From an uncultured Planctomycetia bacterium (GTDB lineage Bacteria > Omnitrophota > Gorgyraeia > 2-02-FULL-51-18): 64,000 bases of DNA. Shown in pieces: positions 4,818 through 29,015 of the stretch. The stretch is taken from contig CAZXLF010000006.1 of the NCBI GenBank assembly GCA_964642015.1, positions 58,661 to 122,660 of the forward strand. The letters are read 5' to 3'. The notes under the pieces are model-generated. The model was not told the origin of the DNA. It was given only the letters and a program-made list of their open reading frames with translations, and did no database searches. Both the position numbers and the translations under genes were made by a program. Position 1 is the stretch's first letter. Each line of letters opens with the position of its first letter.

Positions 4818-6608
4818 CTACTGAAAGAGCTTGCTGAGGACTTTTTGATAGGATTGCTCTTGCGTTCCGTCGCCCGAAGACGCGGCGGCCGATGAGGAAG
4901 ATTGACCCTTCGCGATCGCTTTTTGGAGCGCCTGCGATATCAACTCGTTGCCCTTAGTCTCCATGACCTTGGAAAATATAAAACTCATATCAGGCTCAAT
5001 GACGAGATTGCGCACATTGCCACGTATTTTTACAGGGATCACAAGTCTTTTATCATTATCCAAAATATACTGGATCTGCGGAGCGCTCTGTGCGATGACC
5101 TCTGAAAGTCCGGGATCGATCACGAACGTAGCATCAAAACTGACCGCACCTTCCAAACTCACTCTCCCGGCCGTGCGCAATTCAAAACCCTCCAGCACGA
5201 TCTCAAGGTTAGGAATCATCAACACGCCATCCGTGATCTCCACAGGAAATTGTATCGGCGGCAAAATCGTATCATGTTTTTCAAAAATATGCTTATACTG
5301 CAAAGGCAATTGGTTATTGACTGCATCCCCGACGCCTGGAATCTGAGACAATTTATCAAACACAAGTTTCAGGATGTTGAGATTCACGATGGCGCCTTCA
5401 GTCAAAGAAATACTGCCTTTTCCGGTCAAGCTTTTAGAGATCGGGGGCCAAGTCAGGCCGTTAGCCTCTCCATTGAATGTGGCAGAAAAATTTCCATGAA
5501 GCTGGGGCGTATAAGCCTGCGGTTTTGGTATGGCTCGAGCCAATGAAATTTTTTCGACGCGGAGTCCTACCATGGATTGGGGAGCAGCGCCCATATAATT
5601 TTGCGAAGCACCGGTAGCGGTGACTTTTCCATCAGCAAAATCCGCAGAAAAATTCTTCAGTTGGAGCTGAGTCCCTTTTGCATTGGCTTTAAAATTCACA
5701 TTCTCAAGCGGGCTCATAAGCGATGCGGTAAAAATCCGGCCTCCCGTCAGATCAACATCAGCATCCAGATCCGAAAGGCCTTTTCCATCAATCTTCAAAT
5801 GCCAAATCGTTCCGTCCAAACGGCCCAAGAGTTTGTCTTGAAGTCCTGCGCTTTTAAGCGAAGGGGCCGCATCCATCAGCTGATCCAGTTTAATATTCGC
5901 CAAGTCAAGACTAGTCTTGAACTCCTCAAGCACATAAGGTCCTGTCATGGATGCAATGCGGATACGGCCTTCCAAATGCAAGTTTTGTGTGGAATTAAAA
6001 ATACCCATATTCGCTTGAAAATCGACCGTATTAGAAAATGACAGATTTTTGATCAAAATATCCAGACGATGGATAGGCATCTGCAGCGGCGCGGAAGGAG
6101 ATCTGTCGTAATAGCCGATCTCGGCACCTTCTACTTTGACACTGCCGATAATGACAGCGGCCGCAAGCGATGCTGACTCTGAACGGGCGTGATTAGAAGA
6201 TTTGGCTTTATTAGGAGGGGGTGGGTTGATGCCATTAATATGAATGGAGCCATCCGCTTCTTTGATGACATTGAACTTGGGCCGTACCAATCTGATCGAA
6301 CCAATCTCCAGCCTTTTGCCTAGAAGCGGGAGCAGACGTACGCTTAGAACAGCGCGCTCCAAGTAAAGCGCGGGCCTGTCCAAAGTTTTCTTGTCACGAT
6401 AGATAGCCAGCTCTCGGAGCTCAAGCGCAACACCATTGCTCCATCCCAAGGATATCTCGCCGATGGCTACAGGGCTTCCAATGGCCGATTCAATACCCTT
6501 CGTGATTTGTGTTTTATAGTGATTAATATCAAATGTAGCCAGAAAAATAGCTAACACCGTGCCAAGAGCGACGGCAGTCCCTATGATGCCTATTAATATT
6601 TTTCTCAT
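4818..6608 (-). CDS. AsmA-family outer-membrane biogenesis protein (N-terminal anchor)
   Basis: 596 aa with an N-terminal TM and long beta-rich repetitive architecture typical of the AsmA/TamB-like family. Inferred from architecture. Confidence 0.5.
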   Translation of the reverse strand: MRKILIGIIGTAVALGTVLAIFLATFDINHYKTQITKGIESAIGSPVAIGEISLGWSNGVALELRELAIYRDKKTLDRPALYLERAVLSVRLLPLLGKRLEIGSIRLVRPKFNVIKEADGSIHINGINPPPPNKAKSSNHARSESASLAAAVIIGSVKVEGAEIGYYDRSPSAPLQMPIHRLDILIKNLSFSNTVDFQANMGIFNSTQNLHLEGRIRIASMTGPYVLEEFKTSLDLANIKLDQLMDAAPSLKSAGLQDKLLGRLDGTIWHLKIDGKGLSDLDADVDLTGGRIFTASLMSPLENVNFKANAKGTQLQLKNFSADFADGKVTATGASQNYMGAAPQSMVGLRVEKISLARAIPKPQAYTPQLHGNFSATFNGEANGLTWPPISKSLTGKGSISLTEGAIVNLNILKLVFDKLSQIPGVGDAVNNQLPLQYKHIFEKHDTILPPIQFPVEITDGVLMIPNLEIVLEGFELRTAGRVSLEGAVSFDATFVIDPGLSEVIAQSAPQIQYILDNDKRLVIPVKIRGNVRNLVIEPDMSFIFSKVMETKGNELISQALQKAIAKGQSSSSAAASSGDGTQEQSYQKVLSKLFQ

Positions 6609-6629: not shown

Positions 6630-7163
6630 TCAGCTTTGTACTTTCTTAAAACTTTTAATCACTATCGGACGGCCGTTCCTGTCCACATAGGTCAACACAA
6701 TATCTCCCTGATGAGGCATCTGATCTCTCTTGGCTGCAGGAAGTTTTACCAGCGCTTCCGCCGGAAGATCTTTTGTCACATAACTGCACATACAGCGCTC
6801 AGGGTTTGGGGACTCGAGCTTAGTAATGCTTAGGACGCTTCCTTCATCGATACTGTACTTAGAAGTTGACGCGGCTTTGTTGAATTTATTAATCAGCGCT
6901 TTATCAGTTGAGATCGGCGTGGTGGAAATAACCTGCTTCACATCGCCTTTTCTGTCGAACATCAATCTCTGATAAGGCCAAGCAAAGGAATCTTTGGGAT
7001 CGATCTTGATCTTGGTGTTGATATCCCTCATATCCCAGGTGCCGATCAAATCCGACATAAAGCAGGGTCTGACTCCCTTCTCCGTCGCCGCAAAGACCGA
7101 ACACTGATATCCGCCGAGAAAAACAAAAAGGAACGACCAAACAAAAAGCTTGCAAAACCGCAT
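6630..7163 (-). CDS. Secreted hypothetical protein
   Basis: Signal peptide MRFCKLFVWSFLFVFLGG...VFA. Confidence 0.4.
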   Translation of the reverse strand: MRFCKLFVWSFLFVFLGGYQCSVFAATEKGVRPCFMSDLIGTWDMRDINTKIKIDPKDSFAWPYQRLMFDRKGDVKQVISTTPISTDKALINKFNKAASTSKYSIDEGSVLSITKLESPNPERCMCSYVTKDLPAEALVKLPAAKRDQMPHQGDIVLTYVDRNGRPIVIKSFKKVQS

Positions 7164-13347: not shown

Positions 13348-13965
13348 ATGGTAAAATCTGCACACTTTTTTTGGGCAAAGACAATAAATAGGGCTCTAGC
13401 CACTTGCTTCTTGGGCTTAGCAGTGATAGCCCCTTTTTGTTTTCATTATGGCTACCATCGTGTATTTCCGCTCCGCGGGGAATGGGTCGATCAGACTGTG
13501 GGACAAATACTGAGCGAGAAATATGGCGATAAAGTAGTGGTGAAAGATACCGAGATCGTCAGTTGGCGCGATATTCGCTGTCAGACCGTCAAAATTTATG
13601 CAAAAGACAGCATGCTCCTTGTCAGCGCCAATTCCGGCAGGATCGTTCTAAAAAATCCCAGTCTGAGTATAAATCACGATTTCATTACCGAGATAGAACT
13701 CTCAGGCGTATCACTTTCCAAACGTTATTTTGAAAATACCAAAGGCATCAAACCTTGGATCCATTTAATGCGAAGGCCGATACACATGAAAAATCTGCTG
13801 CTCAGCATCTCTCAGGGGAACAAATCCACCACCGTCCGTGTCTTAAAATGCAAATCCAACGACATCATCTTAAGCGGCAGCATGATCTTCAATGACAAAG
13901 GTGTTCTTAAAGACGATCTATTTGTCTCAATGTCTCCGCTTAAAATGCTCTGGATGATGATTTGA
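13348..13965 (+). CDS. Hypothetical membrane-anchored protein
   Basis: N-terminal TM helix; no recognisable family. Confidence 0.4.
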   Translation: MVKSAHFFWAKTINRALATCFLGLAVIAPFCFHYGYHRVFPLRGEWVDQTVGQILSEKYGDKVVVKDTEIVSWRDIRCQTVKIYAKDSMLLVSANSGRIVLKNPSLSINHDFITEIELSGVSLSKRYFENTKGIKPWIHLMRRPIHMKNLLLSISQGNKSTTVRVLKCKSNDIILSGSMIFNDKGVLKDDLFVSMSPLKMLWMMI

Positions 13966-13973
13966 TTTAAAAC

Positions 13974-14294
13974 CTATAGGACAGCTTTGTCGCCCTTTTC
14001 GCCTGTGCGCACGCGAATAAGATCGTCCAAAGGAAGTAGCGCTATCTTTCCATTGCCAATATCGCCCGTGCGGCAAACCTTTACGATCACATTGACAAAT
14101 TCATCCGCTTGCTCATCCGTACAATAAATCTCGATCTTGATCTTCGGTAAAACCAGATAATTGTCCGGCCGGCTTGTTTGAGCGCCGAATCCGCGTACAT
14201 CGGATATCGTCATGCCGCCTACACCGGCTGTGCGCAGTTCGTTTTTCAGCTCTTCAAATTTTTCCGGCCTTATGATGCATTCGATCTTCTTCAT
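13974..14294 (-). CDS. PII-family signal-transduction protein (non-canonical T-loop)
   Basis: MKKIECIIRPEKF...GMTISDVRGFG...KIKIEIY...GDIGNGKIALLPLDDLIRVRTGEKG matches the GlnB/GlnK fold and B/C-loops. The T-loop is short and lacks the canonical RGxEY Tyr context. Confidence 0.8.
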   Translation of the reverse strand: MKKIECIIRPEKFEELKNELRTAGVGGMTISDVRGFGAQTSRPDNYLVLPKIKIEIYCTDEQADEFVNVIVKVCRTGDIGNGKIALLPLDDLIRVRTGEKGDKAVL

Positions 14295-14399
14295 AAAATT
14301 CTCCATTTGATCGGTATAATCTACAGGAATATCATTTCAAACAAGTTACAAAAAATGAACAACGATGAAAAAGCCTTGGATTAAAAAACTGCGGTCGAT

Positions 14400-15662
14400 C
14401 TATATTCTGAAAAACAGATACCAAATAACAAAAAAGATCGGTATCAGTATCGGGAGACTATATTTATAGAAATACTCAAAAAAATGTGGCGTCTTGGCTT
14501 CAGACTGATCCGCTATCGACTTGACCAAAAAATTAGGCCCATTACCGATATAAGTAACGGCTCCAAAAAAAACTGAGCCGACGCTTATGGCTCGAATAAA
14601 ATTCGGATAGTTTGAAAGAAGATCGACAACCCCCTTATTTCCAGCAACTCCTTTCCCAAATAAGCCCAATGCAGCACTAAAGAAACTGAGATACGTCGGA
14701 GCATTATCCAAGACGCTGGACAAGATCCCGCTGCTCCAATAAAACTGTCCGGGATTGTTCAGTCCGAGTTGAGGGGCGTAACGTTCAAGCCATTCCAAAG
14801 CAGGGATCATCGTAATAAATATTCCGGCGAACAAAATGGCCACCTCTTTGATGGGAGCGAAATTAAAATCATTGCTTTCATGAACAGACTTAGCCGTCGT
14901 TGTATAAGATAAAAATGCCGCCAATACCATTATCGCCTCTCTTAAAAAAGGCGGATGGTTGATAAAAACTGAGCCGACGATCATCGCCAAAAAAATCATG
15001 TTATGCATGCCTAAAAATTTCCATTCCTCGTGGGTCGTTTCTTTTTGGCGGATCTCCAAAGGCGCTTTTTTGAAATCCAGCGTATCCAAAACAAAGAACA
15101 CTGCCAGCAGTACACCGATCGCAATAAGCCAGATCGGAAATACATTATTCAAAACCCAAAAAAACGGCACACCCTTCAAATATCCCAGAAAAAGCGGCGG
15201 ATCGCCTATCGGTGTCAGCCCTCCTCCTATATTACTGACGATGAAAATAAAAAAGACCGTATGATACGCCGTGATCCTGTATTTGTTCATGCGAAGCCAT
15301 GGGCGAATGAGCACCATTGATGCGCCGGTAGTTCCCAGAACATTCGAAAACAACGCGCCGATCAAAAGAAAAATACAATTGGCCAGTGGCGTCGCTTCGC
15401 CTTTGACGTTGATATGAATTCCGCCGGATACAACAAACAAAGAACCGATCAGACAAATAAAACTGATATATTCGACGCCGGTATGGACAAGACTGGCTGT
15501 ATACTTCAATTGAAAAAGATAATGGGCTGTAATAAGAAAAGCCGGTCCCAATGAAACAAAAATAAAATTTTTCTCCCACCACTGCTTATTGGCAAGAGGC
15601 AGTACGGCAATCAAACCTAAAAGAAGAATAAAAGGCAGCGTCCAGAGAAATTCTATTATCAT
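14400..15662 (-). CDS. IT-superfamily (ArsB/NhaD-like) anion/cation permease
   Basis: About 12-13 TM with two re-entrant hairpin-like motifs (IGGGLTPIGDPPLFLG and IGNGPNFLV). Subfamily and substrate unresolved. Confidence 0.5.
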   Translation of the reverse strand: MIIEFLWTLPFILLLGLIAVLPLANKQWWEKNFIFVSLGPAFLITAHYLFQLKYTASLVHTGVEYISFICLIGSLFVVSGGIHINVKGEATPLANCIFLLIGALFSNVLGTTGASMVLIRPWLRMNKYRITAYHTVFFIFIVSNIGGGLTPIGDPPLFLGYLKGVPFFWVLNNVFPIWLIAIGVLLAVFFVLDTLDFKKAPLEIRQKETTHEEWKFLGMHNMIFLAMIVGSVFINHPPFLREAIMVLAAFLSYTTTAKSVHESNDFNFAPIKEVAILFAGIFITMIPALEWLERYAPQLGLNNPGQFYWSSGILSSVLDNAPTYLSFFSAALGLFGKGVAGNKGVVDLLSNYPNFIRAISVGSVFFGAVTYIGNGPNFLVKSIADQSEAKTPHFFEYFYKYSLPILIPIFFVIWYLFFRI

Positions 15663-15785: not shown

Positions 15786-17759
15786 TCAGACCCGAATCGG
15801 AAGGATCACGAACGGAATTCCCTGCTTGTAAAATTTTCTCTGCAATACAAAAACCGTGTGATTGTGAAGGATGCGGGTGAACACCGTCTCTTCCGGAAAT
15901 ACAAGCTGGCCTCCGAAAAAAACAGCGTTAGGGTAAAGTTTTAAAAGTTCAGGCGCTATCTTTTCAGCTTCACTGACAACATCGATCCCGATATATGAAA
16001 GACCTTCGGCATAACAGCCCTGGCTCTGCATAAAATCCACGTAGCGGTTCACTTCTTTATTTATCTTATTCTTTAAATGGTCCACTTCGTCCGCGCCTTT
16101 AAAATTTCCTGCATCAATGATCCCTATTTGAACGAATACAAAATTTTTGAATGCCGTTCCAAAAAGACGGATCGAATTAAAAAGCGTGTGAAGTCCGAGC
16201 CCGTTAAATCCGTTCACCAGAAACACAGCCGTTTTTGCATCAGGCGACGTGTCCTTCGGTGTCGCTCCTTTGGGGAATTCCACTGATGCGGCTTCTTGAA
16301 GCAGGTCATTCAGGCGCCTGAGCATATGCGCGGTCTTCAGATAATGCCGTTTGACGATCACGGCGACCGCGATCAATGATCCTGTTATCGCAATAGTGAT
16401 CCATCCGCCGTCATGGAACTTCAAAATCACCACTGTCACAAGAATAAAGGTCGTCGCAATGAGGCCCAGACCTGCGATGATAAGCTTTCCCCACCAGATC
16501 CGGACCGTCTTTCGCATTTCCCACCAATGTTTGACCATTCCTAAATGCGATAAGCAAAAGGTAATGAACACATTGATGCTATAAAGAACAACGAGGAACC
16601 GGACAGAACCCTTCGTTAACACGATCGTTACCAATGCTGCCGCACCCATCCACAAGACGCCGTTCTGCGACACCAGACGGTCGCTTAGCATCGCGAATTG
16701 GGAAGGAAACCAACGGTCAAGCGCCATATTTGAAAGTATTTTCGGTCCGCCTAAAAATCCGGTCTGTGCCGCAGTAAAAAGAAGTAACGCCTCCGAGATT
16801 AATGTCACCAATACAAAAACATAACCCCCGTGTCCCCATCCGGCTGTCACTTGTTCGAATAAGACTGCATTCAGAGTCTTGCCATGTATATGCTCAACGT
16901 GGAATAAAAGATACGCAAGCATGAGACCCATAACGGTAAACGCAAGAGAAAAAGCCATGTAACGCATCGTGCTTTTACCGGTCTTTACTCGAGGTTCTCT
17001 TAAGATCGCCATGCCGTTGCTGACCGCTTCGATACCGGTAAAGGTTCCCGCGCCCATACTATAAGCGCGTAAAATCAAGAAGATCATCGCGAAAAGTCCT
17101 ATCTGGGACCGCGTGGTATGGATCTCATTAACGGTCGCATGCAAGACCCCTGAAAAATTTCCGGAATGAACGATCAGTGCGTAGACAATAACCAACACGT
17201 GGGTAAATAGAAAGATCATAAAAATAGGCACTAGAGGAATAACGGATTCTTTGACTCCGCGTAAATTCAGGATCGTAAGCAATAAAACACCGAATATCGC
17301 GAAAAAAAGCTTATAACTCTGCCACTCCACCGGCAGAAAACTGTAAATGGCGTCCGTGCCGCTAGCGATCGATATCGCGATAGTCAGAACATAATCAATC
17401 AGAAGTGCACATCCAGACACTAACCCGGCATTCGGCGACAAGAGTTTGCTTGCAACCAGATAGCCGCCGCCGCCCGCTGGAAACAATTCGATGATTTGAG
17501 AATAGCTGGCACTGATCAAAAAAACCGTAAGCGCCGAAGCTAGAGCGACAAAAATACTGAGATAATAGTGCCCGTGTAAAGCTAAAAAAGCCTCTTCGGG
17601 ACCGTAACAAGATGAAGATAAGCCGTCCGCGCCTAAACCTACCCAGGCAAAAAAAGCGATCAGCGATAAATGATGGAAGACGCTTTGGTCCAACGGGCTT
17701 TTGGCCTGGCCGATCACGGCGTGTTTTATTTTTTTCGTAAAAGATTTGGAAGCAGGCAT
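15786..17759 (-). CDS. kimA: KimA-family high-affinity K+/H+ symporter (APC superfamily) with C-terminal cytoplasmic domain, copy 2
   Basis: Blocks shared with B. subtilis KimA: LSLIAFFAWVGLGADGLSSSCYGPEEA, FPAGGGGYLVASKLL...LLIDYVLTIAISIASGTDA, LNLRGVKES, TGIEAVSNG and C-terminal TVFTRILHNHTVF. The ORF-track start is TTG; the in-frame ATG at 17759 is used. Confidence 0.8.
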   Translation of the reverse strand: MPASKSFTKKIKHAVIGQAKSPLDQSVFHHLSLIAFFAWVGLGADGLSSSCYGPEEAFLALHGHYYLSIFVALASALTVFLISASYSQIIELFPAGGGGYLVASKLLSPNAGLVSGCALLIDYVLTIAISIASGTDAIYSFLPVEWQSYKLFFAIFGVLLLTILNLRGVKESVIPLVPIFMIFLFTHVLVIVYALIVHSGNFSGVLHATVNEIHTTRSQIGLFAMIFLILRAYSMGAGTFTGIEAVSNGMAILREPRVKTGKSTMRYMAFSLAFTVMGLMLAYLLFHVEHIHGKTLNAVLFEQVTAGWGHGGYVFVLVTLISEALLLFTAAQTGFLGGPKILSNMALDRWFPSQFAMLSDRLVSQNGVLWMGAAALVTIVLTKGSVRFLVVLYSINVFITFCLSHLGMVKHWWEMRKTVRIWWGKLIIAGLGLIATTFILVTVVILKFHDGGWITIAITGSLIAVAVIVKRHYLKTAHMLRRLNDLLQEAASVEFPKGATPKDTSPDAKTAVFLVNGFNGLGLHTLFNSIRLFGTAFKNFVFVQIGIIDAGNFKGADEVDHLKNKINKEVNRYVDFMQSQGCYAEGLSYIGIDVVSEAEKIAPELLKLYPNAVFFGGQLVFPEETVFTRILHNHTVFVLQRKFYKQGIPFVILPIRV

Positions 17760-17805
17760 AAAATTTTCTTTCGCTCCAATAAATGAATTAAAGATATTTA
17801 TTACA

Positions 17806-17846
17806 AGTAAACGCCAGCGCAAAATTTTTACGCTGGCGTTTACTTT
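17806..17846 (-). terminator. 14-bp perfect hairpin between glnK and kimA copy 2 (possible attenuator or terminator)
   Basis: agtaaacgccagcg-caaaattttta-cgctggcgtttact. Downstream on the minus strand is AT-rich but lacks a clean U-run. Confidence 0.4.
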
Positions 17847-17869: not shown

Positions 17870-18208
17870 TTAGATAGCTTTGTCTCCCTGCTCTCCGGTA
17901 CGAATACGAATCGCGTCGTCAATGGGGGCTATAAAGATCTTGCCGTCCCCAACTGCACCCGAACGGCAAATTTCCATGATCGCCTCGATCAGTTTTTTAA
18001 CCTGGCTATCGGCAACCACGATCTCTATCTTTATTTTCGCGAGGAACGGCGTCTTGTACTCCGTGCCTCGAAATTGATGCGTCACACCCCCTTGTTTACC
18101 ATGACCTTTTATCTCTGTCACCATCATGCCGGGATAACCGATCTTTTCCAGATGTTGACGTAAAACTTCGAGTTTTTCAGGTCGGATAATCGCTTCGATC
18201 TTTTTCAT
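17870..18208 (-). CDS. glnK: Nitrogen regulatory protein PII (GlnK type)
   Basis: MKKIEAIIRPEKL...GHGKQGG...FRGTEYKTPFLAKIKIEIVV...GAVGDGKIFIAPIDDAIRIRTGE has a canonical T-loop with Tyr51. It lies 12 nt downstream of amtB. Confidence 0.9.
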   Translation of the reverse strand: MKKIEAIIRPEKLEVLRQHLEKIGYPGMMVTEIKGHGKQGGVTHQFRGTEYKTPFLAKIKIEIVVADSQVKKLIEAIMEICRSGAVGDGKIFIAPIDDAIRIRTGEQGDKAI

Positions 18209-18220
18209 ATATCCTCCCGA

Positions 18221-19684
18221 TTAAGCTGTCGGAAGTTCGGGATAAGCCGAACCGCCGTGTTCATGAATATCAAGACCCTGTAATTCCCCCTCTTTGGAAA
18301 CACGCAGAGTTCCTGTCAAATTCACTAGCCACATCAAAAGCAATCCACCAAAGAAGGCTCCGGCACCGATGGAAGCATTGCCAATGACTTGCGCAATGAA
18401 TTGATCCCAACCACCACCATAAAGCAACCCTTTGACCACCGCGGCTGCCGAATTGTCAGCTCCGGTCGGTGTAGGCGCTCCGAACTGTCCTGTAGCAAAC
18501 AAACCAAGACTCCAAGTGCCCCAAACACCGCACAGGCCATGTACCGGCCAAGCTCCGCACGGATCATCAACGCGAATATGTTCCAAAAAATCCGTGCCCA
18601 AGATAACTAATACGCCGGCCACAAGACCTATAACGATTGCACCACCGGGAGAAACCCAGTAGCAAGGACATGTGATCGCGACGAGGCCTGCTAAAATTCC
18701 ATTGCAAGTAGCTCCGCAATCCCATATCTTGGCCCGAGGATAAACAAAGAAAATGGCTGAAAGTCCTCCGGCGACAGCGGCAAGCGTCGTGTTGCATGCG
18801 ATACGGCCAATTCCTATCATATCCATTGCCGAAAGCGTGCTTCCGGGATTGAAACCGTACCATCCAAACCATAGAATGATCGTCCCAAGTGCTGCGATCG
18901 TCATGTCATGGCCTGGCATGGGTCCACCGCCATCCCTTTTGAACTTACGACCTAAACGAGGTCCTAAGACTATCGCACCTGCTAACGCGATCATACCGCC
19001 GATCGTGTGAACTACTGTCGAGCCTGCGAAATCATGGAACGCCGCCGGCTTGATTGTATTCAACCAGCCATCCGGACCCCATGCCCAATGACCCAAAATC
19101 GGATACATCACGCCGCTGACTACAAAACTATACAATAGGTCGCCGATGAATCCTGTGCGTCCAAGCATCGCACCGGAAGTAATAGTTGAGGTGCAATCCG
19201 CAAACGCAAACTGGAAAAGGAAATAGGCCAGCGTGGCCACACCCGTACTTCCATAGGTCTCAGGAATGCCATGCAGAAAATAATATTGATTTCCGATAAA
19301 GCCGTTGCCCGAGCCGAACATCCAAGCAAAACCCCATGCCCAGAACAAAATGCCGCAAAGACAAGTATCAATGACACCTTCCAGCAACACATTAATGGTC
19401 TCACGCGTACGGCCAAAACCCGCTTCCAGCATCATGAAACCGGCTTGCATGAAAAATACCAAAAACGCCGTAATTAGCACCCACATCGTATTGATCGGAT
19501 TAATATAAGGTGCCGGTGCAGCAGCGTCTTCTGCCCAAACCTTGGCTCCAAAATAAGCAGGCACAGCATAAATTATTGCAATGAGCAAGCCCACTCCAAG
19601 CATCTTACCGCCGAAGATCGCATAAAAGAGTTTCCTCTCTTTTGGATCCCGCATCTTTTCAAAAAACTTCTTAACTGACCTCAT
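18221..19684 (-). CDS. amtB: Ammonium transporter (Amt/MEP family)
   Basis: Amt signatures (MQAGFMMLEAGF, twin-His region) and a C-terminal tail. Confidence 0.9.
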   Translation of the reverse strand: MRSVKKFFEKMRDPKERKLFYAIFGGKMLGVGLLIAIIYAVPAYFGAKVWAEDAAAPAPYINPINTMWVLITAFLVFFMQAGFMMLEAGFGRTRETINVLLEGVIDTCLCGILFWAWGFAWMFGSGNGFIGNQYYFLHGIPETYGSTGVATLAYFLFQFAFADCTSTITSGAMLGRTGFIGDLLYSFVVSGVMYPILGHWAWGPDGWLNTIKPAAFHDFAGSTVVHTIGGMIALAGAIVLGPRLGRKFKRDGGGPMPGHDMTIAALGTIILWFGWYGFNPGSTLSAMDMIGIGRIACNTTLAAVAGGLSAIFFVYPRAKIWDCGATCNGILAGLVAITCPCYWVSPGGAIVIGLVAGVLVILGTDFLEHIRVDDPCGAWPVHGLCGVWGTWSLGLFATGQFGAPTPTGADNSAAAVVKGLLYGGGWDQFIAQVIGNASIGAGAFFGGLLLMWLVNLTGTLRVSKEGELQGLDIHEHGGSAYPELPTA

Positions 19685-19736: not shown

Positions 19737-20468
19737 TTAATAAGCCAAATCATGGTTCATTAATCTAATGACTCCGTAACACCAATCAATGTCAGATTCC
19801 CTGACCCTGACAACCGACTGCTTAAGATCAATGGCCCGAAGAATCTTTGTTTTATTCTCGCTTGAATAGATCCGACACATCGGCGGATGGCCTTTTACTT
19901 TAATCACCACCAATTGGCCATCCTTTATCCGCTCCATCGACTTTCTGATATCGACCAGCACGATATCTCCTAACCGGCAATTGGGCTCCATGCGTTTATC
20001 GGTGATCTCAAATCCGAAAATAAATCCTGGAAAAACATCCGACGGTAAAAAACATCGTCTTTGCGTCCACTTAACGGGATTTTTGATGGCATCTAAAGGA
20101 AGGGATCTTGTCTTGTCGTTCAAAAGAGGCGCATAGTTAGGCCCTGAGATCGAAACAACCGGATCTTTCGATCCCAAAATCAAATCTCTTCGATATTTTG
20201 TTTTTCGTATGCCTTTAATCTTCATAACTTCCGTAAAAGGAATCCGGAAAATACCGGCTATTTTTTTTAGGATGTCATTCCTTAAAGGAAAAGAGCGTTT
20301 GTTCTCCCATTTGGAGACCGCCTGCTTTTTCACTCCGATCTTCCGGGATAATTCCTCTTGCGTCATTCTCAGTCCGGTCCTTAGCTCTTTTAATATGGAA
20401 CCAAATTCTTCTACAGCTATGCTCATACTGTGGTTGGGACTATTTAAAGTGTCTCTGTTTGTCATCAT
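19737..20468 (-). CDS. LexA/CI-like regulator: XRE-type HTH plus C-terminal S24 peptidase-like domain lacking the catalytic Ser
   Basis: HTH: TQEELSRKIGVKKQAVSKWE. C-terminal S24 fold: DKRMEPNCRLGDIVLVD...GQLVVIKVKG. Arg or Lys sits where LexA has the Ser-119 nucleophile (GDSM); Lys is retained. Confidence 0.65.
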   Translation of the reverse strand: MMTNRDTLNSPNHSMSIAVEEFGSILKELRTGLRMTQEELSRKIGVKKQAVSKWENKRSFPLRNDILKKIAGIFRIPFTEVMKIKGIRKTKYRRDLILGSKDPVVSISGPNYAPLLNDKTRSLPLDAIKNPVKWTQRRCFLPSDVFPGFIFGFEITDKRMEPNCRLGDIVLVDIRKSMERIKDGQLVVIKVKGHPPMCRIYSSENKTKILRAIDLKQSVVRVRESDIDWCYGVIRLMNHDLAY

Positions 20469-20653: not shown

Positions 20654-21358
20654 TCACTCATCAATTCGAAGACGATAACCCACGCCGGGCTCGGTAAGGA
20701 TGTATCGGGGTCTGTTGGGATCAGGCTCGATCTTATCTCGAAGATTATTGATCGTAACTCTCACAATGTGTGAAGCATTCGGTGTCTGATCGGATTTGTT
20801 CCAAACCTCCTCCAAAAACTGGCGGTGAGTGATCACTCTGCCGGCATTCATCACGAGGATCTTTAACACATCATACTCTGTAGGAGTCAGCCGAACAGGA
20901 CTTTCATTAAGGCTGGCCGTATGCTTGGCGATGTCGATGGAGATCCCGGCCACATTGAAAACTGTTTGTTCATTTCGAGGTGTAAGGCGCCGCATTACGG
21001 CTCTTAGCCGTGCCAGCATTTCAGCGGCGTCGAAAGGTTTGGTCAGATAATCATCGGCACCCGCATCCAACGCGGCTATCTTATCCGACTGATCCTTCCT
21101 GACTGATAAAATAACTATGGGAGTCCTTGATCGCTTGCGGATCTGGCGCGTCACGTCAAGTCCATCCATATCCGGCAGCCCAAGATCCAGAATAATCGCG
21201 TCGGGATGAGATGAGACAGAATTTTCCAAGGCCTCAGCACCGTCAGAAGCCTCAAAGACTTTGTAGCCATTCGAAAGAAGCGTGGCTTTTAAGAATCTGC
21301 GAATGGTTTTTTCATCATCAACCACAAGCACCCGAAGATTATGGGACACATCCATCAT
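20654..21358 (-). CDS. kdpE: OmpR-family response regulator, KdpE-like
   Basis: REC domain (VVDDE...ILDLGLPDMDG...LTKPF) plus a winged-helix C-terminus. Close resemblance to KdpE (ILSVRKDQSDKIAALDAGADDYLTKPF). Confidence 0.75.
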   Translation of the reverse strand: MMDVSHNLRVLVVDDEKTIRRFLKATLLSNGYKVFEASDGAEALENSVSSHPDAIILDLGLPDMDGLDVTRQIRKRSRTPIVILSVRKDQSDKIAALDAGADDYLTKPFDAAEMLARLRAVMRRLTPRNEQTVFNVAGISIDIAKHTASLNESPVRLTPTEYDVLKILVMNAGRVITHRQFLEEVWNKSDQTPNASHIVRVTINNLRDKIEPDPNRPRYILTEPGVGYRLRIDE

Positions 21359-22479
21359 AGCGCCTTCGCCTCCTCCAATGGCATCAATATCGTAATAACA
21401 GCTCCGCCCTCCGGGTTATTGCCGGCATAGATCTCCCCTCCGTGCGCTTCCACGATCCCTTTGCAAATAGATAAGCCGAGGCCGGTCCCTGTTACGCGTT
21501 TCGGATTAACAGCTCTGTAGAATTTATCAAAAATACGTTTCAGATCCTCTTCCGGAATACCGAATCCGCTGTCCTTAATTTCGATCTTCACTTTTTTCTC
21601 CACGAACCTGGCTATAATCTCGACCGGCGTATAGGGTGATGAGTATTTTAAGGCATTATCTAATAAATTCATCAACACTTCCATCATCAAAGTAAAATCC
21701 ATCGGGATCAAGGGTAGATCTTTGGGAATATCCACACGGATCTGGCGTCTTTCTATCTTGTTATTAAGCTGTTGGAGCGAAGCTCGGACAATATCGATCA
21801 GTTCACAAGGCTCGGATCTCACTTTCAGCGTTCCGGCTTCCACTCGCGTCATTTCAAGAAGGTCATTCACCAGATGGTTCAAACGTCCCGAATCCTCATA
21901 CGCCGTTTCTAGGAGCTCTCTTCGGGACTCCTGGGCCTTAAGCGTCGGATCCTGTAGAAGAACGCTCAAAGTGCCCTTGATCGAAACAAGCGGCGTCCTC
22001 AAATCGTGAGAAATAGAATTAAGAAGCGCTGTCTGCAGTTTTTCCGTCTCGCGCATTAATTCCAGCTTACGGGATTCCTCGTCCAGTTTTTTCTGAAGAT
22101 TGTACATCGCGACCGCTTCGGCCTCTCTTTGCCGGGCCTGAATGGCTTGCTCCCTGGCTTTTGCGGCCAAATTGCTCACCACCAACCCCACAGCTAAAAG
22201 ACCGACAAAGGTAAATATATTTCTGACATCCGCGATTCGGAAAGACATATAAGGGGGACTTAAGAAAAAATCGAATGCCACAGCGCTTAAAATAGAGGTA
22301 ACAATGGCAGGGCCTATGCCCCATCGGACTGCCGAGAAAACAACGATCAATAGATATACCATCACAAAACTTGCCGGATCAAAGTTTGCTTTCAGATAAA
22401 TCCCGAAAAGAGACGTGAGGATCACAAGTCCCGCGGCGAAAAAATATTGATAGAAATTGCCCATTAATCTTTTTTGCAT
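21355..22479 (-). CDS. Short-form KdpD-like histidine kinase (TM region plus HisKA/HATPase; no N-terminal KdpD sensor or Usp domains)
   Basis: 4 N-terminal TM helices, H-box SISHDLRTPL, N, G1 and G2 boxes (DNALKYS, DSGFGIP, GTGLGLSICKGIV). 4-nt overlap with kdpE. Confidence 0.7.
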   Translation of the reverse strand: MQKRLMGNFYQYFFAAGLVILTSLFGIYLKANFDPASFVMVYLLIVVFSAVRWGIGPAIVTSILSAVAFDFFLSPPYMSFRIADVRNIFTFVGLLAVGLVVSNLAAKAREQAIQARQREAEAVAMYNLQKKLDEESRKLELMRETEKLQTALLNSISHDLRTPLVSIKGTLSVLLQDPTLKAQESRRELLETAYEDSGRLNHLVNDLLEMTRVEAGTLKVRSEPCELIDIVRASLQQLNNKIERRQIRVDIPKDLPLIPMDFTLMMEVLMNLLDNALKYSSPYTPVEIIARFVEKKVKIEIKDSGFGIPEEDLKRIFDKFYRAVNPKRVTGTGLGLSICKGIVEAHGGEIYAGNNPEGGAVITILMPLEEAKAL

Positions 22480-23045: not shown

Positions 23046-24974
23046 TTAAAGCGCGTACACGCCTCTTTCGCCGGTGCGGATACGCAAAGCGCTCGATGCC
23101 TCAAGCACGATAATCTTACCATCCCCTATTCCGCCGGTACGCGTTGCCTCTGTGATCACTTCCATCGTCCTATCCACATCCCAATCCCTGACGAGTATCT
23201 CTACTTTGGATTTAGGAAGAAATCGAATCGTGTCTTCCGAGCTGGCGACCCCATTTGTATCACCTTTCTGGCGGCCAAACCCACGCACATCCGTCACGGT
23301 CATGCCCATTACCAGATTGTGCTGTTTGAGCGCTGAGACGATATCACCCAACTGTTCGGGACGGATCACGCAAGTGACCAGTCGAACACGGTAGGTTTTC
23401 TGCAAGCTGGTAACTGCGACATAAAGCAAGCTGATCAAAGCCCAAGCGCCCGCGATCACAAAGCAGATCTTCGCTTCATTTTTGGCATCGGCATTTCCAA
23501 TAATGTAAAGATAGAGAATTGCCCCGGCCATGATAACGTTCGTAATGACTCCGAGCGCAGGAATAATGCCGTGTTTCAAAAGATTAAAATCTTTCCGGCC
23601 TTTGAACGCGACTATTGTCCAAACACAAGTTAGTCCATATAGAATAAAGGTGCCCAAGTTCGAAGCCAGCGTAATTCCAGTCAGACCCACGACTGATCTC
23701 ACACCGACCGCGGCGATCAGTGAAGAAACCACCACTAATACCCAAAGCGCTGTGTGAGGTGTGCTGAATTTTCCGTGCATAAATCCAAGGAATTCGGGCA
23801 ACTCCCTATCCTCGGCCATGCCGCAAGTTACACGAACCGCTGTATTCATACAGCTTAGTGTCGTGCCAACGATCGCAATGGCGACGGTAATAGCTATGGT
23901 GATCATAAAGCCAAAGCCAATACCGGGAAGCACATGATCACCCAAAAGTTTGGCCAAGTCACCGATCGGAGCGCTCGACGCAGCGGCAGCGGCCATTCCT
24001 GTCACTGCGGCTGCGGGAACCGCTGCTACCGCGGGTGTTGTAGCAGTTGCTGCGACTGCGGCCACCGCAGGAGTGGTACCAGTCAATTTCTCACTGAGCA
24101 TAAAACCTGTCGCGAAGTATTCGAAAAGATAAGCAATTGCACCTTGAACAATAAGAGCGAGAATGATGGCTTTAGGAATGGTTGTTTCGGGATTCTTTGT
24201 TTCAGCAGACAAGGCCGTACAGCTCTCAAAACCGACCAAGATAAGAATCGCAACAGTCGATTGTACCAAAACACCTTGGAGCGAATGCGGTTTAACAACA
24301 TCCCAAGCACCACTGAAAACCCACTGAGTAGCATGCTCAGGGTTCGCAAAACGATAATAAATCGCCAAACCGCTGAAAACCACCAAACTCACCCATTGGA
24401 TCACGTTGATCCAAATGTTGGTGACCGTGGATCCTGTCACTCCGCGATAAGCAATGTATCCCGTGGCTAAAGCGAACACTCCACCGATGATCGTCAATTC
24501 CGTATTTGATAATGTTTTGCCGGTAAATTGGGTATAGATGTATCCGATCAATGTTGCCATGAAAGCAACCATAACGCCTGGATAGACCCAATAGAACAGA
24601 TGCGCGGCCCAACCAGTGAAAAGTTTGCTGACGCGGGCGATAGAAGTGGGTCCGTGATCCTTTACTTTACCTTGGCGATCCAAGAAAGCTTTTTCGGCAA
24701 AATATGCGCAGCTCGCAAAACCCGCTTCTGGATAGATCTTCGCGAGTTGAGCATAAGATAAAGCCGTAAGAAATGCGACCGCCAACGCAGCAATAATGCC
24801 GAACCAAATATCGCTGGCTACTGAAGCGCCGCTTGGAGCTGTCGCAGCCGCCTGCAACTGATATGTGATCCACAAAAACGCCCCTGGCGCGATCAACGCC
24901 ATCGCATTCATTGTGGCGCCCATCAATCCCAGGGTCGGTTTTAAGGTTCTTGAACTAACTTCTGTCTGTGCCAT
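23046..24974 (-). CDS. APC-superfamily permease with a C-terminal fused PII domain
   Basis: N-terminal 12-TM APC core (FESCTALSAETKNPETTIPKAII). An internal Ala/Thr/Pro/Val-rich low-complexity insert (TGTTPAVAAVAATATTPAVAAVPAAAV...). C-terminal approximately 110 aa are RVRLVTCVIRPEQL...GMTVTDVRGFGRQKG...FLPKSKVEILV...TGGIGDGKIIVLE...LRIRTGERG, matching GlnB nearly block-for-block but lacking Tyr51. Confidence 0.8.
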   Translation of the reverse strand: MAQTEVSSRTLKPTLGLMGATMNAMALIAPGAFLWITYQLQAAATAPSGASVASDIWFGIIAALAVAFLTALSYAQLAKIYPEAGFASCAYFAEKAFLDRQGKVKDHGPTSIARVSKLFTGWAAHLFYWVYPGVMVAFMATLIGYIYTQFTGKTLSNTELTIIGGVFALATGYIAYRGVTGSTVTNIWINVIQWVSLVVFSGLAIYYRFANPEHATQWVFSGAWDVVKPHSLQGVLVQSTVAILILVGFESCTALSAETKNPETTIPKAIILALIVQGAIAYLFEYFATGFMLSEKLTGTTPAVAAVAATATTPAVAAVPAAAVTGMAAAAASSAPIGDLAKLLGDHVLPGIGFGFMITIAITVAIAIVGTTLSCMNTAVRVTCGMAEDRELPEFLGFMHGKFSTPHTALWVLVVVSSLIAAVGVRSVVGLTGITLASNLGTFILYGLTCVWTIVAFKGRKDFNLLKHGIIPALGVITNVIMAGAILYLYIIGNADAKNEAKICFVIAGAWALISLLYVAVTSLQKTYRVRLVTCVIRPEQLGDIVSALKQHNLVMGMTVTDVRGFGRQKGDTNGVASSEDTIRFLPKSKVEILVRDWDVDRTMEVITEATRTGGIGDGKIIVLEASSALRIRTGERGVYAL

Positions 24975-25372: not shown

Positions 25373-26695
25373 TTAGGCTAGAACTTTACGGTCTTTCAGC
25401 ATGTTATCATAAAATCCGGAAAGCGCTTGATAGAGATGTTTGGCCCTGAAAATTCGCGCCACCATATAACCAATAAGCGCTGAAAGCATGATCGGAAGAA
25501 GCATCTGATGATGTCCGGTCATCTCATAGATGATCACAAATGAAGTAATAGGCGCCTGGATCGCTCCGGAAAGAAAAGCCGCCATACCCATCACGGCGCA
25601 AGTCGCGATAGGTCCGTTTTGCCAAGATGCCGCCCATGCTCCGATAGCTGAACCCATCGATAGACATGGGGCAAAAATACCTCCCGCGATGCCGGACCAA
25701 TAAGTAAAAAGAGTCGCGCCCATTTTGGATGCCGCGAATAAACCTGGCGCGTTCTCGGTAGTCCCGTGCAAATAATTTTGCGCTACCAGATTTCCCGGTC
25801 CCATGATCCCTTTCATTCCGGTAGCAACCGCCAAAAAAAGGACCGCCCAGGCAAGAAACGTGATGAACATATACCGCTTCCATCCTTTTATCGCCATCAA
25901 ACGCCGCCTTCCTTCTACTAGAAACACCGAAAAAAAAGTGCCCCCTGCCCCGCCTATCACGCCAACGATAAGAATCATGATGATAGTAACAGATCCTGGT
26001 TCACTGAGATGTCCAAAATAGATATATTCTCCAGTCAATGTCTTTGCAGCAAGGCCGGCAACAATAATCGCCATTAAAACCATATCCTTGATACTGGCGA
26101 AATAATCCGATGAAAGCTCTTCGATCGCGAAAGTTACCCCTGCCAATGGCGTGTTAAAAGCCGCCGCCAATCCGGCTGCGCCGCCCGCCACCACAGCTGA
26201 ACGCATATTGAACGGCAATTTTAAAACACGGTGCAACGCCAAAGTGATCCCAAAAAACAAACACGCCGCAATATGGACTGTCGGGCCTTCACGTCCCGTA
26301 GAAGCACCGGCCCACAATCCGATCAAGAGAGCTGCTATTTTGATCGCCATCGTCTTGAACGAAACCAGGGGTTTTAAATCCTCAAAGTTCGAATCATTGA
26401 TATGTTTGGCCGCGAAAATAGTCTGCGGGATCCCGGCTCCGTCGGCACAAGGTGCCAAATATCGGATGAGTTCAATGGCCATAACAAAAAGGATGGGTGT
26501 CGTCACCCAACACCATAGCCCTATCCGCTGAGGATCCAAGCGATGGATATATACAAATTCAAAGGCACGCATGAATAGCACACAAACCATGCCTGTTAAT
26601 ACGGCCGCCCCTAAGTATATTCCTAAGCTGAGACCATAACGGTGGGTGAATAATTTCTTATAAAATTTATCGACTATAGCGAATGAGCGGGTCAT
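25373..26695 (-). CDS. ClC-family chloride channel / Cl-/H+ antiporter
   Basis: GAGIPQ (GSGIP-like), GREGP with the gating Glu, GIFAP and Y-containing motifs. Confidence 0.85.
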   Translation of the reverse strand: MTRSFAIVDKFYKKLFTHRYGLSLGIYLGAAVLTGMVCVLFMRAFEFVYIHRLDPQRIGLWCWVTTPILFVMAIELIRYLAPCADGAGIPQTIFAAKHINDSNFEDLKPLVSFKTMAIKIAALLIGLWAGASTGREGPTVHIAACLFFGITLALHRVLKLPFNMRSAVVAGGAAGLAAAFNTPLAGVTFAIEELSSDYFASIKDMVLMAIIVAGLAAKTLTGEYIYFGHLSEPGSVTIIMILIVGVIGGAGGTFFSVFLVEGRRRLMAIKGWKRYMFITFLAWAVLFLAVATGMKGIMGPGNLVAQNYLHGTTENAPGLFAASKMGATLFTYWSGIAGGIFAPCLSMGSAIGAWAASWQNGPIATCAVMGMAAFLSGAIQAPITSFVIIYEMTGHHQMLLPIMLSALIGYMVARIFRAKHLYQALSGFYDNMLKDRKVLA

Positions 26696-26798: not shown

Positions 26799-26804
26799 CG
26801 TTTT

Positions 26805-26940
26805 TATTTGCAGCGCCGAACCGGCCATAATATCCGGGCGGGGAACCCAAAGATTTACCGGGGCGAATCACTCATTCAAAGGTGACAGGTATTAAAACTT
26901 TTCGACCTGAGCCCGGCAGCTAACCTCGCAGGCGGACGTA
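26805..26940 (+). ncRNA. Candidate ydaO/kimA-type c-di-AMP riboswitch (cis-regulatory leader)
   Basis: The leader contains CGGGGAACCCA, GGGGCGAAUC and CCCGGCAGCUAACCUCGCAGG. As I recall it, the ydaO consensus has CGGGGnACCCA, GGGGUGAAUC and a B. subtilis CCCGACAGCUAACUCCGG block. It sits directly upstream of a KimA homologue, the classic regulated gene. Confidence 0.5.
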
Positions 26941-26957
26941 AAAGGAGTATTGAAAGC

Positions 26958-29015
26958 ATGTCTTCTGAAAACACTTCCGAGAACGTTCCTCCACCGGCTT
27001 GGTCTAACTTAAAGAAAACGCTTTTCGGCCCAGCCAGAAATCTTAACGATCCGTCGCTAGGCCACAAACTATCATTGATTGCTTTTTTCGCCTGGGTAGG
27101 CTTGGGAGCCGACGGCTTGTCTTCCTCAGCGTATGGACCTGAAGAAGCTTATCGGGCTTTGGGAAGTCACACGTATCTTGCGATATTCCTTGTTCTCGCA
27201 ACAGCCCTTACCGTTTTTGTTATCTCCTACACGTACGGCAAGATCATTGAACATTTTCCGGTCGGCGGAGGCGGTTATATTGTAGCCACAAATCTGCTTG
27301 GAAAACCGGCTGGCGTAGTTTCCGGGTGTGCTCTTTTCGTGGATTATATCCTAACGATCACTGTTTCGATCGCTGGCGGCGGCGATGCGTTATTCAGCTT
27401 GCTTCCGGCGGAACTTCGGCCGTTAAAACTACCGATCGAATTCATCGCGATCATTTTTCTGATCATCATGAACCTGCGCGGCGTCAAAGAATCGGTGACG
27501 GTTCTGATGCCGATATTCCTCACCTTTGTCGCGACCCATTTTATTTTAATATTCGGCGGCATCTTTGCGCACACTTACGATATTCATGCTGTGACTGACA
27601 ATGTGCAGCAGGGTCTTCAGTCAGGCGCTAAAGAACTGGGAATACTTGGCTTGTTCTTGGTCTTTTTGCGCGCCTATTCGCTGGGCGGCGGAACTTATAC
27701 GGGTATCGAAGCTGTTTCCAACGGTGTCAGCATTCTGCGCGAACCGCGGGTCAAAACCGGAAAACGTACGATGCTTTATATGGCGCTATCACTCGCTTTG
27801 ACCGCCGGCGGACTTTTGTTGTGCTACATGTTGGCCGGAGTAAAACCGACCGAAGGCCAAACGCTTAATACCGTTCTTTCGATGCAGCTTTTCTATGGAC
27901 TAAAATGGGGCGCTCTGCCTCTTGGACACTGGTTCGTCCTGGTCACAATATCTTCCGAAGCGATCCTTTTACTTGTTGCGGCTCAGACAGGTTTTATTGA
28001 CGGGCCGCGGGTCCTTTCGAATATGTCTCACGACGGCTGGGTGCCAAAAAGTTTTGCCGCGCTATCCGACCGTCTGACGATGCAGAACGGTATTTTCCTG
28101 ATAGGACTGGCTTCTATCGCTACTTTGGCTTACACCAAAGGGCATATCGGGATCCTCGTCGTCATGTACAGTATCAATGTGTTCGTGACATTTTCTCTTT
28201 CACAGCTAGGCATGATGCGATTTTGGATATCGCACCGCGAGAATGAAAAAAAATGGCTGCGCGAGTTAACGATCCACCTGACAGGATTCATCCTTTGTTT
28301 TTCGATCCTTTGGGTCATGATCGTGGAAAAATTCATGGAGGGCGCATGGATGACACTGATCATCACGCTGCTCTGCATCGCGCTCTGTTTTATCATCAAA
28401 CGCCACTATGATAATGTGCGCCGGAAGATCGTGGAGATCGACCGTGTTTTTTCACATTTACATTCACTGCCCGACGCGCCTACAAAACCCGAATTTAATC
28501 CGGAAAAACCCACGGCCGTGATCCTCGTCGGCGGCTACAGCGGTCTGGGTATCCATATTTTCCTGAACATCTTCCGCCTTTTTCCGAACACGTTCAAGAA
28601 TGTCGTCTTTGTCAGCGTAACAACCGTCGACTCTGATTTTTTCAAGGAAAGCGGCGAACAGCTCCACCATATGAATGAAAAAACGTATGCGATGCTGGAT
28701 AAATATGTCCGTTTTTCAGAGAAAATGGGCATTCCGGCGCGGGCTGAGTACAGCGCAGGCACCGATGTGGTTGAGTCCGTTTCTCAACTTTGCGTGGAAA
28801 TTTCGAAGAAATATTCTCACGCTGTCTTCTTTGTGGGTGAGCTTGTTTTCGAAAGAACCCAGTGGTACCACCGGATCCTTCATAACGAAACCGCGAACGC
28901 CATCCTTCGAAGGATCCGCTTTGCGGGTCTTCCGATGGTGATGATCCCGGCAAGAATTTCGGACAAAAAGATCTTTTCTAAACAGCAGGTGCCGTCTACG
29001 CCTATTTCAGCATAG
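26958..29015 (+). CDS. kimA: KimA-family high-affinity K+/H+ symporter with C-terminal cytoplasmic domain, copy 1
   Basis: Same conserved blocks as copy 2 (FPVGGGGYIVATNLLGKPAGVVSGCALFVDYILTITVSIAGGGDA, TGIEAVSNG, QTGFIDGPRVLSNMSHDGWVPK, C-terminal TQWYHRILHNETA). ATG with an AAAGGAG RBS. Confidence 0.85.
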   Translation: MSSENTSENVPPPAWSNLKKTLFGPARNLNDPSLGHKLSLIAFFAWVGLGADGLSSSAYGPEEAYRALGSHTYLAIFLVLATALTVFVISYTYGKIIEHFPVGGGGYIVATNLLGKPAGVVSGCALFVDYILTITVSIAGGGDALFSLLPAELRPLKLPIEFIAIIFLIIMNLRGVKESVTVLMPIFLTFVATHFILIFGGIFAHTYDIHAVTDNVQQGLQSGAKELGILGLFLVFLRAYSLGGGTYTGIEAVSNGVSILREPRVKTGKRTMLYMALSLALTAGGLLLCYMLAGVKPTEGQTLNTVLSMQLFYGLKWGALPLGHWFVLVTISSEAILLLVAAQTGFIDGPRVLSNMSHDGWVPKSFAALSDRLTMQNGIFLIGLASIATLAYTKGHIGILVVMYSINVFVTFSLSQLGMMRFWISHRENEKKWLRELTIHLTGFILCFSILWVMIVEKFMEGAWMTLIITLLCIALCFIIKRHYDNVRRKIVEIDRVFSHLHSLPDAPTKPEFNPEKPTAVILVGGYSGLGIHIFLNIFRLFPNTFKNVVFVSVTTVDSDFFKESGEQLHHMNEKTYAMLDKYVRFSEKMGIPARAEYSAGTDVVESVSQLCVEISKKYSHAVFFVGELVFERTQWYHRILHNETANAILRRIRFAGLPMVMIPARISDKKIFSKQQVPSTPISA

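Follow-up and report, generated by a model that had tools for sequence, protein, structure and literature searches.

Gene organization of the locus

We analysed a stretch of 64,000 nucleotides (hereafter, the window) from an uncultured Planctomycetia bacterium placed by GTDB in the Omnitrophota (GenBank assembly GCA_964642015.1, contig CAZXLF010000006.1, positions 58,661 to 122,660 of the forward strand). The analysis centred on two neighbouring genes, one for a membrane permease of the CitMHS_2 family and the other for a small signalling protein of the PII family with a shortened T-loop (hereafter, the short PII). A preliminary description of the sequence had proposed that the PII-like protein gates this carrier. 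All coordinates are those of the window unless a different locus is named.

The permease and the short PII form the 3' end of a cluster of five genes, all on the minus strand, with the order amtB, glnK, KimA homologue, CitMHS_2 permease and short PII. The first gene (18221–19684) encodes an ammonium transporter AmtB of 487 aa (PF00909, 384 bits; TIGR00836, 398 bits, above its cut-off), and the second (17870–18208) a canonical GlnK of 112 aa in which R47 and Y51 are present (PF00543, 103 bits). Directly upstream of the permease lies a homologue of the KimA-family (APC) K+ transporters (15786–17822; PDB 6s3k KimA, E = 2e-59; AA_permease_2), which likely starts at M22 (position 17759) and was called as a protein of 657 aa in locus L001. 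The permease gene (14400–15662) encodes 420 aa and the gene for the short PII, a protein of the GlnB/GlnK type (13974–14294), encodes 106 aa. Both open reading frames (ORFs) were found as previously described, with that of the PII directly downstream of the permease on the same strand.

Two coordinates required correction. Position 13348, given earlier as the left edge of the feature, belongs to an unrelated convergent ORF of 205 aa on the plus strand (13348–13965), which matched no Pfam or NCBIfam model and none of the porin-like genes that follow the short PII in other loci. In addition, the gap of 93 nt reported between the two genes applies to a 110-aa reading of the PII from an alternative start at 14306. 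The second ATG of the PII ORF, at 14294, is preceded at a distance of 8 nt by a GGAG sequence, and all 70 of 70 short-PII homologues begin with MKKIE; we therefore placed the start at 14294. Thus, the spacer between permease and short PII is 105 nt long (14295–14399, minus strand), and it contains GTAACTTGTTTGAAAT at 14334–14349.

A PII protein with a shortened T-loop

The short PII matched PF00543 along the full model (positions 1–102) with 88.9 bits, relative to a cut-off of 25. Its AlphaFold2 (AF2) model, with a predicted local distance difference test (pLDDT) value of 91, adopted the beta-alpha-beta-beta-alpha-beta fold, and Foldseek aligned this model to GlnB/GlnK structures with template modelling (TM) scores of 0.85–0.91, the best match being S. 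elongatus PII (TM 0.9). When the profile of the short-PII clade was searched against the PDB, the best scores, as high as 126 bits, went to GlnB/GlnK structures, and SbtB chains were absent from the matches at E ≤ 1e-3, in agreement with the earlier statement that the protein is not SbtB-like in sequence. An identity as SbtB was rejected on this result together with the C-terminus (...GEKGDKAVL), which has no CGPxGC motif, and the neighbouring carrier, which is of the CitMHS_2 family and not SbtA. An identity as NifI1 was likewise rejected: the NifI1-sized chain of 105 aa, 9p1x_H, was the weakest PII chain in the same search (46 bits), and neither the annotated ORFs nor the related loci that were read showed any nif gene.

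The conservation of the B and C loops noted previously was confirmed, as the B-loop TGDIGNGKIA and the C-terminal RVRTGE are both kept. Among 70 clade members, G35, G37, K51 (equivalent to K58), G80, G82 and K83 (the last three equivalent to G87, G89 and K90) were invariant, and R94 (R101; 67/70), R96 (R103; 69/70) and G27 (67–69/70) were nearly so. At the level of these residues, the short PII keeps the adenine-nucleotide pocket.

The T-loop of canonical PII proteins comprises ~19–20 residues (37–55). In the short PII it spans residues 37–47 of the model, and alignments with HMMER and MAFFT both gave 7 residues less than in canonical PII, as expected from the earlier description of a shortened loop. 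The translated T-loop region, GFGAQTSRPDNYLVLPK (14142–14192, minus strand), conforms to a clade consensus of G-F-G-x-[QE]-T-T-R-P-[ED]-x-Y-L-x-L-P-K, in which R42 (100%), P43 (99%), Y46 (89%; F in 10%) and L47 (100%) were conserved among the 70 members. Tyr51 is the modification site of PII proteins, and Gln39 serves the binding of Mg-ATP/2-oxoglutarate. Whether Tyr51 is missing, as had been claimed, depends on the alignment, since HMMER pairs R42 and Y46 with R47 and Y51, contrary to the claim, whereas MAFFT deletes residues 48–54 instead, in keeping with it. Gln39 is present in the short PII of the window; however, it is replaced by Glu in 29 of the 70 clade members (41%), which makes sensing of 2-oxoglutarate uncertain.

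The short-loop clade is narrow. Only ~2 of 12,522 PII-family representatives (50% identity) carried such a loop, while a few others of 101–106 aa had short loops of different sequence. Most of the named source records assigned the clade to the Omnitrophota (or Omnitrophica), and a literature search returned nothing relevant on short T-loop PII proteins or on PII in the Omnitrophota. Two cysteines are also nearly invariant in the clade, namely C74 (69/70; 14073–14075, minus strand) and C6, which lies within the MKKIEC start (14277–14279, minus strand); these may form a redox-sensitive pair.

The CitMHS_2-family permease

Permease residues 4–418 covered positions 5–448 of the CitMHS_2 model (PF16980) with 474.2 bits, relative to a gathering cut-off of 25.7, and there was a weaker match of 46 bits to CitMHS (PF03600). 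These were the only Pfam matches at E ≤ 10, so that neither ArsB (PF02040) nor DASS (PF00939) was recovered; there was also no match to an NCBIfam model and none to a PDB entry by sequence. An AF2 model built on 43 homologues (pLDDT 77) had as its top Foldseek match ArsB (10tp_A; TM 0.53, 15% identity), followed by Pho90, NaS1, VcINDY and NaCT, and the top 24 PDB matches (TM 0.32–0.53) were nearly all carriers of the IT superfamily or related elevator-type carriers (also DiT and TRAP-QM). The protein had been labelled an ArsB/NhaD-type permease of the IT superfamily, with profile searches proposed to place it among CitMHS, ArsB and NhaD or with DASS. The fold bears out this label, but the profiles assign the protein to CitMHS_2, with CitMHS as the distant second, and not to ArsB, NhaD or DASS.

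The two IGxxPxFL hairpin motifs reported previously are present. LTPIGDPPLFLG occupies permease residues 149–160 (15183–15218, minus strand) and TYIGNGPNFLVK residues 370–381 (14520–14555, minus strand); both were invariant across the 43 homologues and fell at helix breaks of the predicted model (residues 150–166 and 370–374). The permease is predicted from this model to be an ArsB-like, elevator-type secondary transporter of the IT superfamily.

The family is large, with at least 8000 clusters at 90% identity. Sequences from records naming Omnitrophota, Planctomycetia or Eisenbacteria shared 67–81% identity, and identity to Verrucomicrobiota proteins was ~50–60%. Database entries call its members 'putative citrate transporter', 'sodium:proton antiporter' or 'NhaD/arsenite permease-like', which are names only. 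Literature searches found no characterised CitMHS_2 member and nothing relevant on the family; the citrate name in Pfam is a prediction, and a 2023 'valve plug' preprint made no mention of this carrier family. Because AmtB and KimA are encoded alongside it and Asp/Asn residues are conserved at the hairpin tips, we tentatively suggest that the substrate is some small inorganic ion, carried perhaps in Na+/K+-proton exchange, and that its movement would balance charge or pH during the uptake of NH4+ and K+.

Genomic contexts of the short PII

Conservation of the gene pair was assessed in 8 contexts besides the window that encode short PII proteins of 55–81% identity. The gene heads a cluster with amtB and glnK in L166, L168 and L177. 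The order in L166/167 is short PII, hypothetical gene, amtB and glnK, with a CitMHS_2 permease 4.4 kb downstream; in L168 it is short PII, Gcw_chp porin, amtB, glnK and glnA; and in L177 it is short PII, Gcw_chp porin, amtB and glnK. In L179 the short PII is followed by a BBP2 porin, GSIII and GOGAT, with no amtB within 7 kb. The short PII is solitary among unrelated genes in L165, L169, L173 and L174, which include the nearest relatives of the protein in the window (L165 and L173, 80–81% identical). The permease adjoined the short PII in 0/8 of these contexts. Thus, the pairing of transporter and PII, which the preliminary description had proposed to check in relatives, was not conserved, given also that no short PII was found at the other permease loci examined (see below).

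In three of these loci, the short PII is separated from amtB or glutamine synthetase by a gene predicted to encode an outer-membrane beta-barrel (L168, 6336–7106; L177, 7337–8092; L179, 7338–8612), and a gene at the same position in L166 (6350–7171) had no Pfam match. The beta-barrel gene may be part of the operon and encode a porin for ammonium or nitrogen compounds. No counterpart of these porin-like genes was found in the window.

Genomic contexts of the permease

Permease loci were examined in 80 species-representative genomes and 3 further look-ups; 56 of the 80 had at least 3 kb of upstream DNA in view. No short PII was found near the permease in any of the 80 genomes or the 3 further loci. 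Among long contigs, the closest (permease 80% identical) had the order amtB-glnK-amtB-glnK-CitMHS_2-glnA, the next (75% identical) had APC-amtB-glnK-x-APC/Usp-CitMHS_2-glnA, and the third (70% identical) had no nitrogen genes. Overall, amtB and glnK lay within 6 kb of the permease in 12/80 genomes, and a canonical GlnK of 112 aa was its immediate neighbour in 7/80, at a distance of only 10 nt in L035. In L035, L042 and L066, glnK was closer to the permease (10–159 nt) than to amtB (400–493 nt). The order in L066 is glnK-amtB-glnK-CitMHS_2 and that in L171 is amtB-glnK-amtB-glnK-CitMHS_2, with the second glnK adjoining the permease. A KimA-like or APC+Usp gene was found within 6 kb of the permease in 5/80 genomes, as well as in the window.

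As a control, we used 80 unselected metagenome loci with canonical PII genes, taken from a scan in which the short-PII alignment matched canonical PII genes of 112 aa; one partial short-PII locus was among the matches listed in that scan. The permease was present in 2 of these 80 control loci. The association of CitMHS_2 permeases with PII genes is therefore real at the level of the family. Across several phyla, the permease gene lies together with amtB-glnK(-glnA) and genes for KimA-type K+ transporters, and is probably expressed with them. We also considered a specialised GlnK subclade beside the permease and rejected it, since the permease-adjacent GlnK proteins are fully canonical. Because each of these also has amtB nearby, co-regulation is inseparable from direct control by PII in these loci.

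Genes linked to lipid A were also seen at permease loci. In 23 of the 80 genomes, waaA/kdtA (Kdo transferase, PF04413) starts ~0–125 nt after the permease (602 nt in one), and in loci labelled Omnitrophota or Planctomycetia the lipid A gene lpxB lies just beyond glnA.

Sequence elements upstream of the short-PII gene

A motif of the form GTAAY-N6-GAAAY was found ~40–55 nt before the start codon of the short PII in four contexts with different upstream genes, namely the window (14334–14349, minus strand), L165 (~5020–5040), L173 (~5785–5800) and L174 (~345–360). It occurs once in the window and does not fit standard sigma-70 spacing. It may be a lineage-specific or extracytoplasmic function (ECF)-type promoter, or an operator. 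Since the motif is kept whatever gene lies upstream, it points to a promoter or operator of the short PII's own, from which the gene is probably transcribed. The preliminary description had named independent promoters as evidence against the pair, and on this point the motif counts against it. A search for sigma-54 (-24/-12) sites upstream of short-PII genes gave nothing convincing, an Rfam search of the regions preceding short-PII genes in related loci matched no known RNA family, and the spacers of the cluster, including that between permease and PII, contained no terminator-like site.

A different conserved leader precedes the short PII in more distant relatives, in which this gene heads the nitrogen operon. 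It consists of a long stem, a GGACGNAGGCGUCC hairpin that overlaps this stem, and a U-tract after them, and was seen in L168 (5900–5985), L177 (6900–6985) and L179 (~6740–6800), with folding z-scores of -5.1 and -2.1. It looks like a transcription attenuator or a riboswitch of unknown type. The element had no Rfam match and is absent from the window.

Interpretation of the gene arrangement

The two genes lie in a gene neighbourhood devoted to the uptake of nitrogen and cations. We conclude, with moderate confidence, that they are separate members of this neighbourhood and not a dedicated pair of transporter and regulator. The model of a dedicated pair fails because the pairing is not conserved in relatives and because the PII gene has its own upstream element. 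On our account, both genes would have been recruited to the same amtB-glnK cluster, and this would have made them adjacent in the window. The short PII would form a trimer and read ATP/ADP, with binding of 2-oxoglutarate uncertain, and its short loop would bind a conserved target in nitrogen assimilation and not specifically the CitMHS_2 permease. It would thus act as an autonomous sensor, probably expressed from its own promoter, while the permease would be co-expressed with ammonium uptake and assimilation. The earlier proposal that the PII-like protein gates the carrier is therefore retained in part: a gate dedicated to this carrier finds no support in the 0/8 contexts, but a link between PII proteins and the carrier family is supported by the 7/80 genomes in which GlnK adjoins the permease. 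Gating of the CitMHS_2 permease by the short PII is no more than a possibility.

Several observations weigh against our conclusion. No nitrogen genes were found within the flanking DNA in view at 68/80 permease loci, and the commonest neighbour of the permease in Verrucomicrobiota was waaA, directly downstream in 23/80. The sample of short PII genes was limited to 8 other contexts. In 2/9 organisms the two genes are no more than 7 kb apart, much more often than chance would place two single-copy genes so close, and they may thus be linked in function by more than shared regulation. Likewise, as the spacer between permease and PII in the window has no terminator-like site, the two may be co-transcribed there. 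Finally, the suggestion of an inorganic ion draws solely on the neighbours of the permease and its hairpin-tip Asp/Asn residues, and the Pfam description 'putative citrate transport' suggests an anion.

These points bear on three other explanations. If the two genes were a dedicated pair, the short PII would bind the cytoplasmic face of the permease and gate it in response to adenylates or 2-oxoglutarate, in the manner of SbtB with SbtA or GlnK with AmtB. The short distance on one strand with no terminator-like site between the genes is consistent with this explanation, as are the near-invariant T-loop with its invariant tip Arg, which would suit the plug of one conserved partner, the second organism (L166) with both genes in one cluster, and the presence in the window of a transporter covalently fused to a PII domain (see below). 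We nevertheless regard it as very unlikely, since the permease adjoined none of the other 8 short PII genes, no short PII occurred at the other permease loci examined, PII proteins 80–81% identical to that of the window (L165 and L173) are encoded among unrelated genes, and the short PII has a conserved upstream motif of its own. The sizes of the families also differ greatly, with at least 8000 permease clusters at 90% identity against ~2 short-PII representatives at 50% identity. An explanation that extends control to the whole permease family, under which any available PII docks at nitrogen sufficiency (mostly GlnK, and in this organism possibly either protein), is also unlikely. It accounts for canonical GlnK next to the permease in 7/80 genomes, for a glnK nearer to the permease than to amtB in L035, L042 and L066, for a second glnK beside the permease in L066 and L171, and for the permease in 2/80 unselected PII loci. 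Even so, every such glnK has amtB within 0.5 kb and may reflect simple amtB-glnK co-regulation, the permease-adjacent GlnK proteins have no specialised T-loop, most permease loci have no PII nearby, and literature searches found neither experimental nor published support.

The short PII might instead act on AmtB or GlnK, either as an alternative plug or in mixed trimers with GlnK, the permease being a bystander. Such a role would agree with its position at the head of amtB and glnK clusters in L166, L168 and L177 and with the presence of all three genes in the window. In the GlnK-AmtB complex, Arg47 of GlnK enters the AmtB pore, and it is opposite this residue that the HMMER alignment places Arg42, invariant in the short PII; moreover, PII paralogues of E. 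coli are known to form mixed trimers. Nevertheless, a loop shorter by 7 residues might fail to extend into the pore, the short PII of L179 accompanies GSIII-GOGAT and has no amtB within 7 kb of it, and four short-PII contexts have no nitrogen genes at all, so we consider this role doubtful. We are similarly sceptical that CitMHS_2 permeases join AmtB and SbtA as a third class of transporters plugged by PII, to which GlnK and, in this lineage, the short PII would dock and so couple ion flux to nitrogen and energy status. Separate membership of a shared uptake neighbourhood thus remains the explanation that we favour.

Ion-transport genes around the cluster

The five-gene cluster lies in an ion-transport island that covers ~14–29 kb of the window. 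Upstream of the cluster are genes for a histidine kinase resembling the C-terminal part of KdpD (DUF4118+HisKA+HATPase) and an OmpR-type response regulator (20654–22479, minus strand), followed by a fusion of an APC permease to a PII domain (642 aa; 23046–24974, minus strand) and a CLC chloride channel (25373–26695, minus strand). A c-di-AMP riboswitch (26804–26949, plus strand; RF00379, 80 bits) ends 9 nt before a second KimA paralogue of 685 aa (26958–29015, plus strand), which is 46% identical to the KimA-family protein of the cluster. One K+ paralogue would therefore be under c-di-AMP control, while the other is in the nitrogen cluster. An Ion_trans_2 channel is encoded further away (45689–46525, plus strand).

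In the APC::PII fusion, PF00324 matched residues 50–492 and PF00543 residues 531–636 (70 bits); the T-loop of this PII domain is of full length, with no Tyr at position 51. All of its 120 best-matching clusters (67–100% identical) had both domains, with Omnitrophica, Elusimicrobiota and Endomicrobiales among the names, so the fusion is widespread in uncultured lineages. It lies 9 kb from the short PII and permease, and makes PII control of secondary carriers plausible in this lineage. A literature search found no paper on a fusion of a permease to a PII domain.

A gene for an HTH_3 and Peptidase_S24 (LexA/CI-like) repressor (19737–20468, minus strand) ends 52 nt before amtB, and a gene of the same architecture occupies the same position on a second contig carrying this cluster.

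Significance

Few signal proteins are as widespread as those of the PII family, but the transporters known to be their direct targets are few, namely AmtB, SbtA and the cyanobacterial ABC systems for nitrate and urea. The locus offers three testable leads on this question: a narrow PII clade with an almost invariant T-loop shorter by 7 residues; a large uncharacterised transporter family that recurs in amtB-glnK-glnA clusters and that, given this recurrence, has a probable role in ammonium assimilation or the accompanying ion balance; and a natural permease::PII fusion nearby, which bears on PII control of secondary carriers. If CitMHS_2 permeases did prove to be a third PII-plugged class, then, taken with the APC::PII fusion, a whole set of secondary ion carriers in the Omnitrophota and neighbouring phyla would be gated by PII modules directly. 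The locus would then lengthen the list of PII targets, and the current understanding of PII signalling would not be overturned.

Comparison with known systems

The arrangement of a transporter gene followed on the same strand by one for a small PII-fold protein resembles sbtA-sbtB, and in both cases a secondary carrier would be joined by a regulator that possibly acts as a plug. In cyanobacteria, sbtA and sbtB are expressed together and SbtB is ubiquitous (PMC9974498; bioRxiv 10.1101/2022.05.18.492403). In contrast, the carrier described here is CitMHS_2/ArsB-like and not SbtA (PF05982), the PII is of the GlnB/K type with no CGPxGC redox loop, and the pairing of permease and short PII is not conserved. 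The permease model shares with ArsB an elevator-type architecture built of two inverted repeats, both of which contain a re-entrant hairpin. It differs from ArsB in its low identity (15%), its hairpin tips (IGDPPLFL and IGNGPNFL), the absence of a Pfam ArsB match and of ars genes nearby, and its neighbours, which are ammonium, potassium and glutamine-synthetase genes.

Among PII proteins, the paralogues NifI1 and NifI2 have T-loops of non-standard length and function together in a hetero-oligomer. The short PII recalls them as a short-T-loop protein of ~105 aa that is accompanied in its cluster by a second PII of normal or longer loop, but the clade profile gave 9p1x_H only 46 bits, compared with 126 bits for GlnB/K, and neither the annotated ORFs nor the related loci that were read included nif genes. 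Relative to GlnK and GlnB, the short PII has a T-loop of 7 residues less with its own R-P-x-x-Y-L motif, a variable position 38, Glu in place of Q39 in 41% of the clade, Ala in place of F92, and the clade-specific C6 and C74, at which canonical PII proteins mostly have other residues; it also has no conserved pairing to any one transporter gene. It nevertheless shares with these proteins the fold (predicted TM 0.9 to S. elongatus PII), ~50% identity and the same B-loop and C-terminal nucleotide-binding residues, and it resembles the amtB-glnK system in being clustered with amtB and in adjoining a membrane transporter. The link of the permease to nitrogen is suggestive but unproven. The short PII is a narrow new variant of the GlnB/K type, encoded beside an uncharacterised nitrogen-cluster transporter of a known superfamily.

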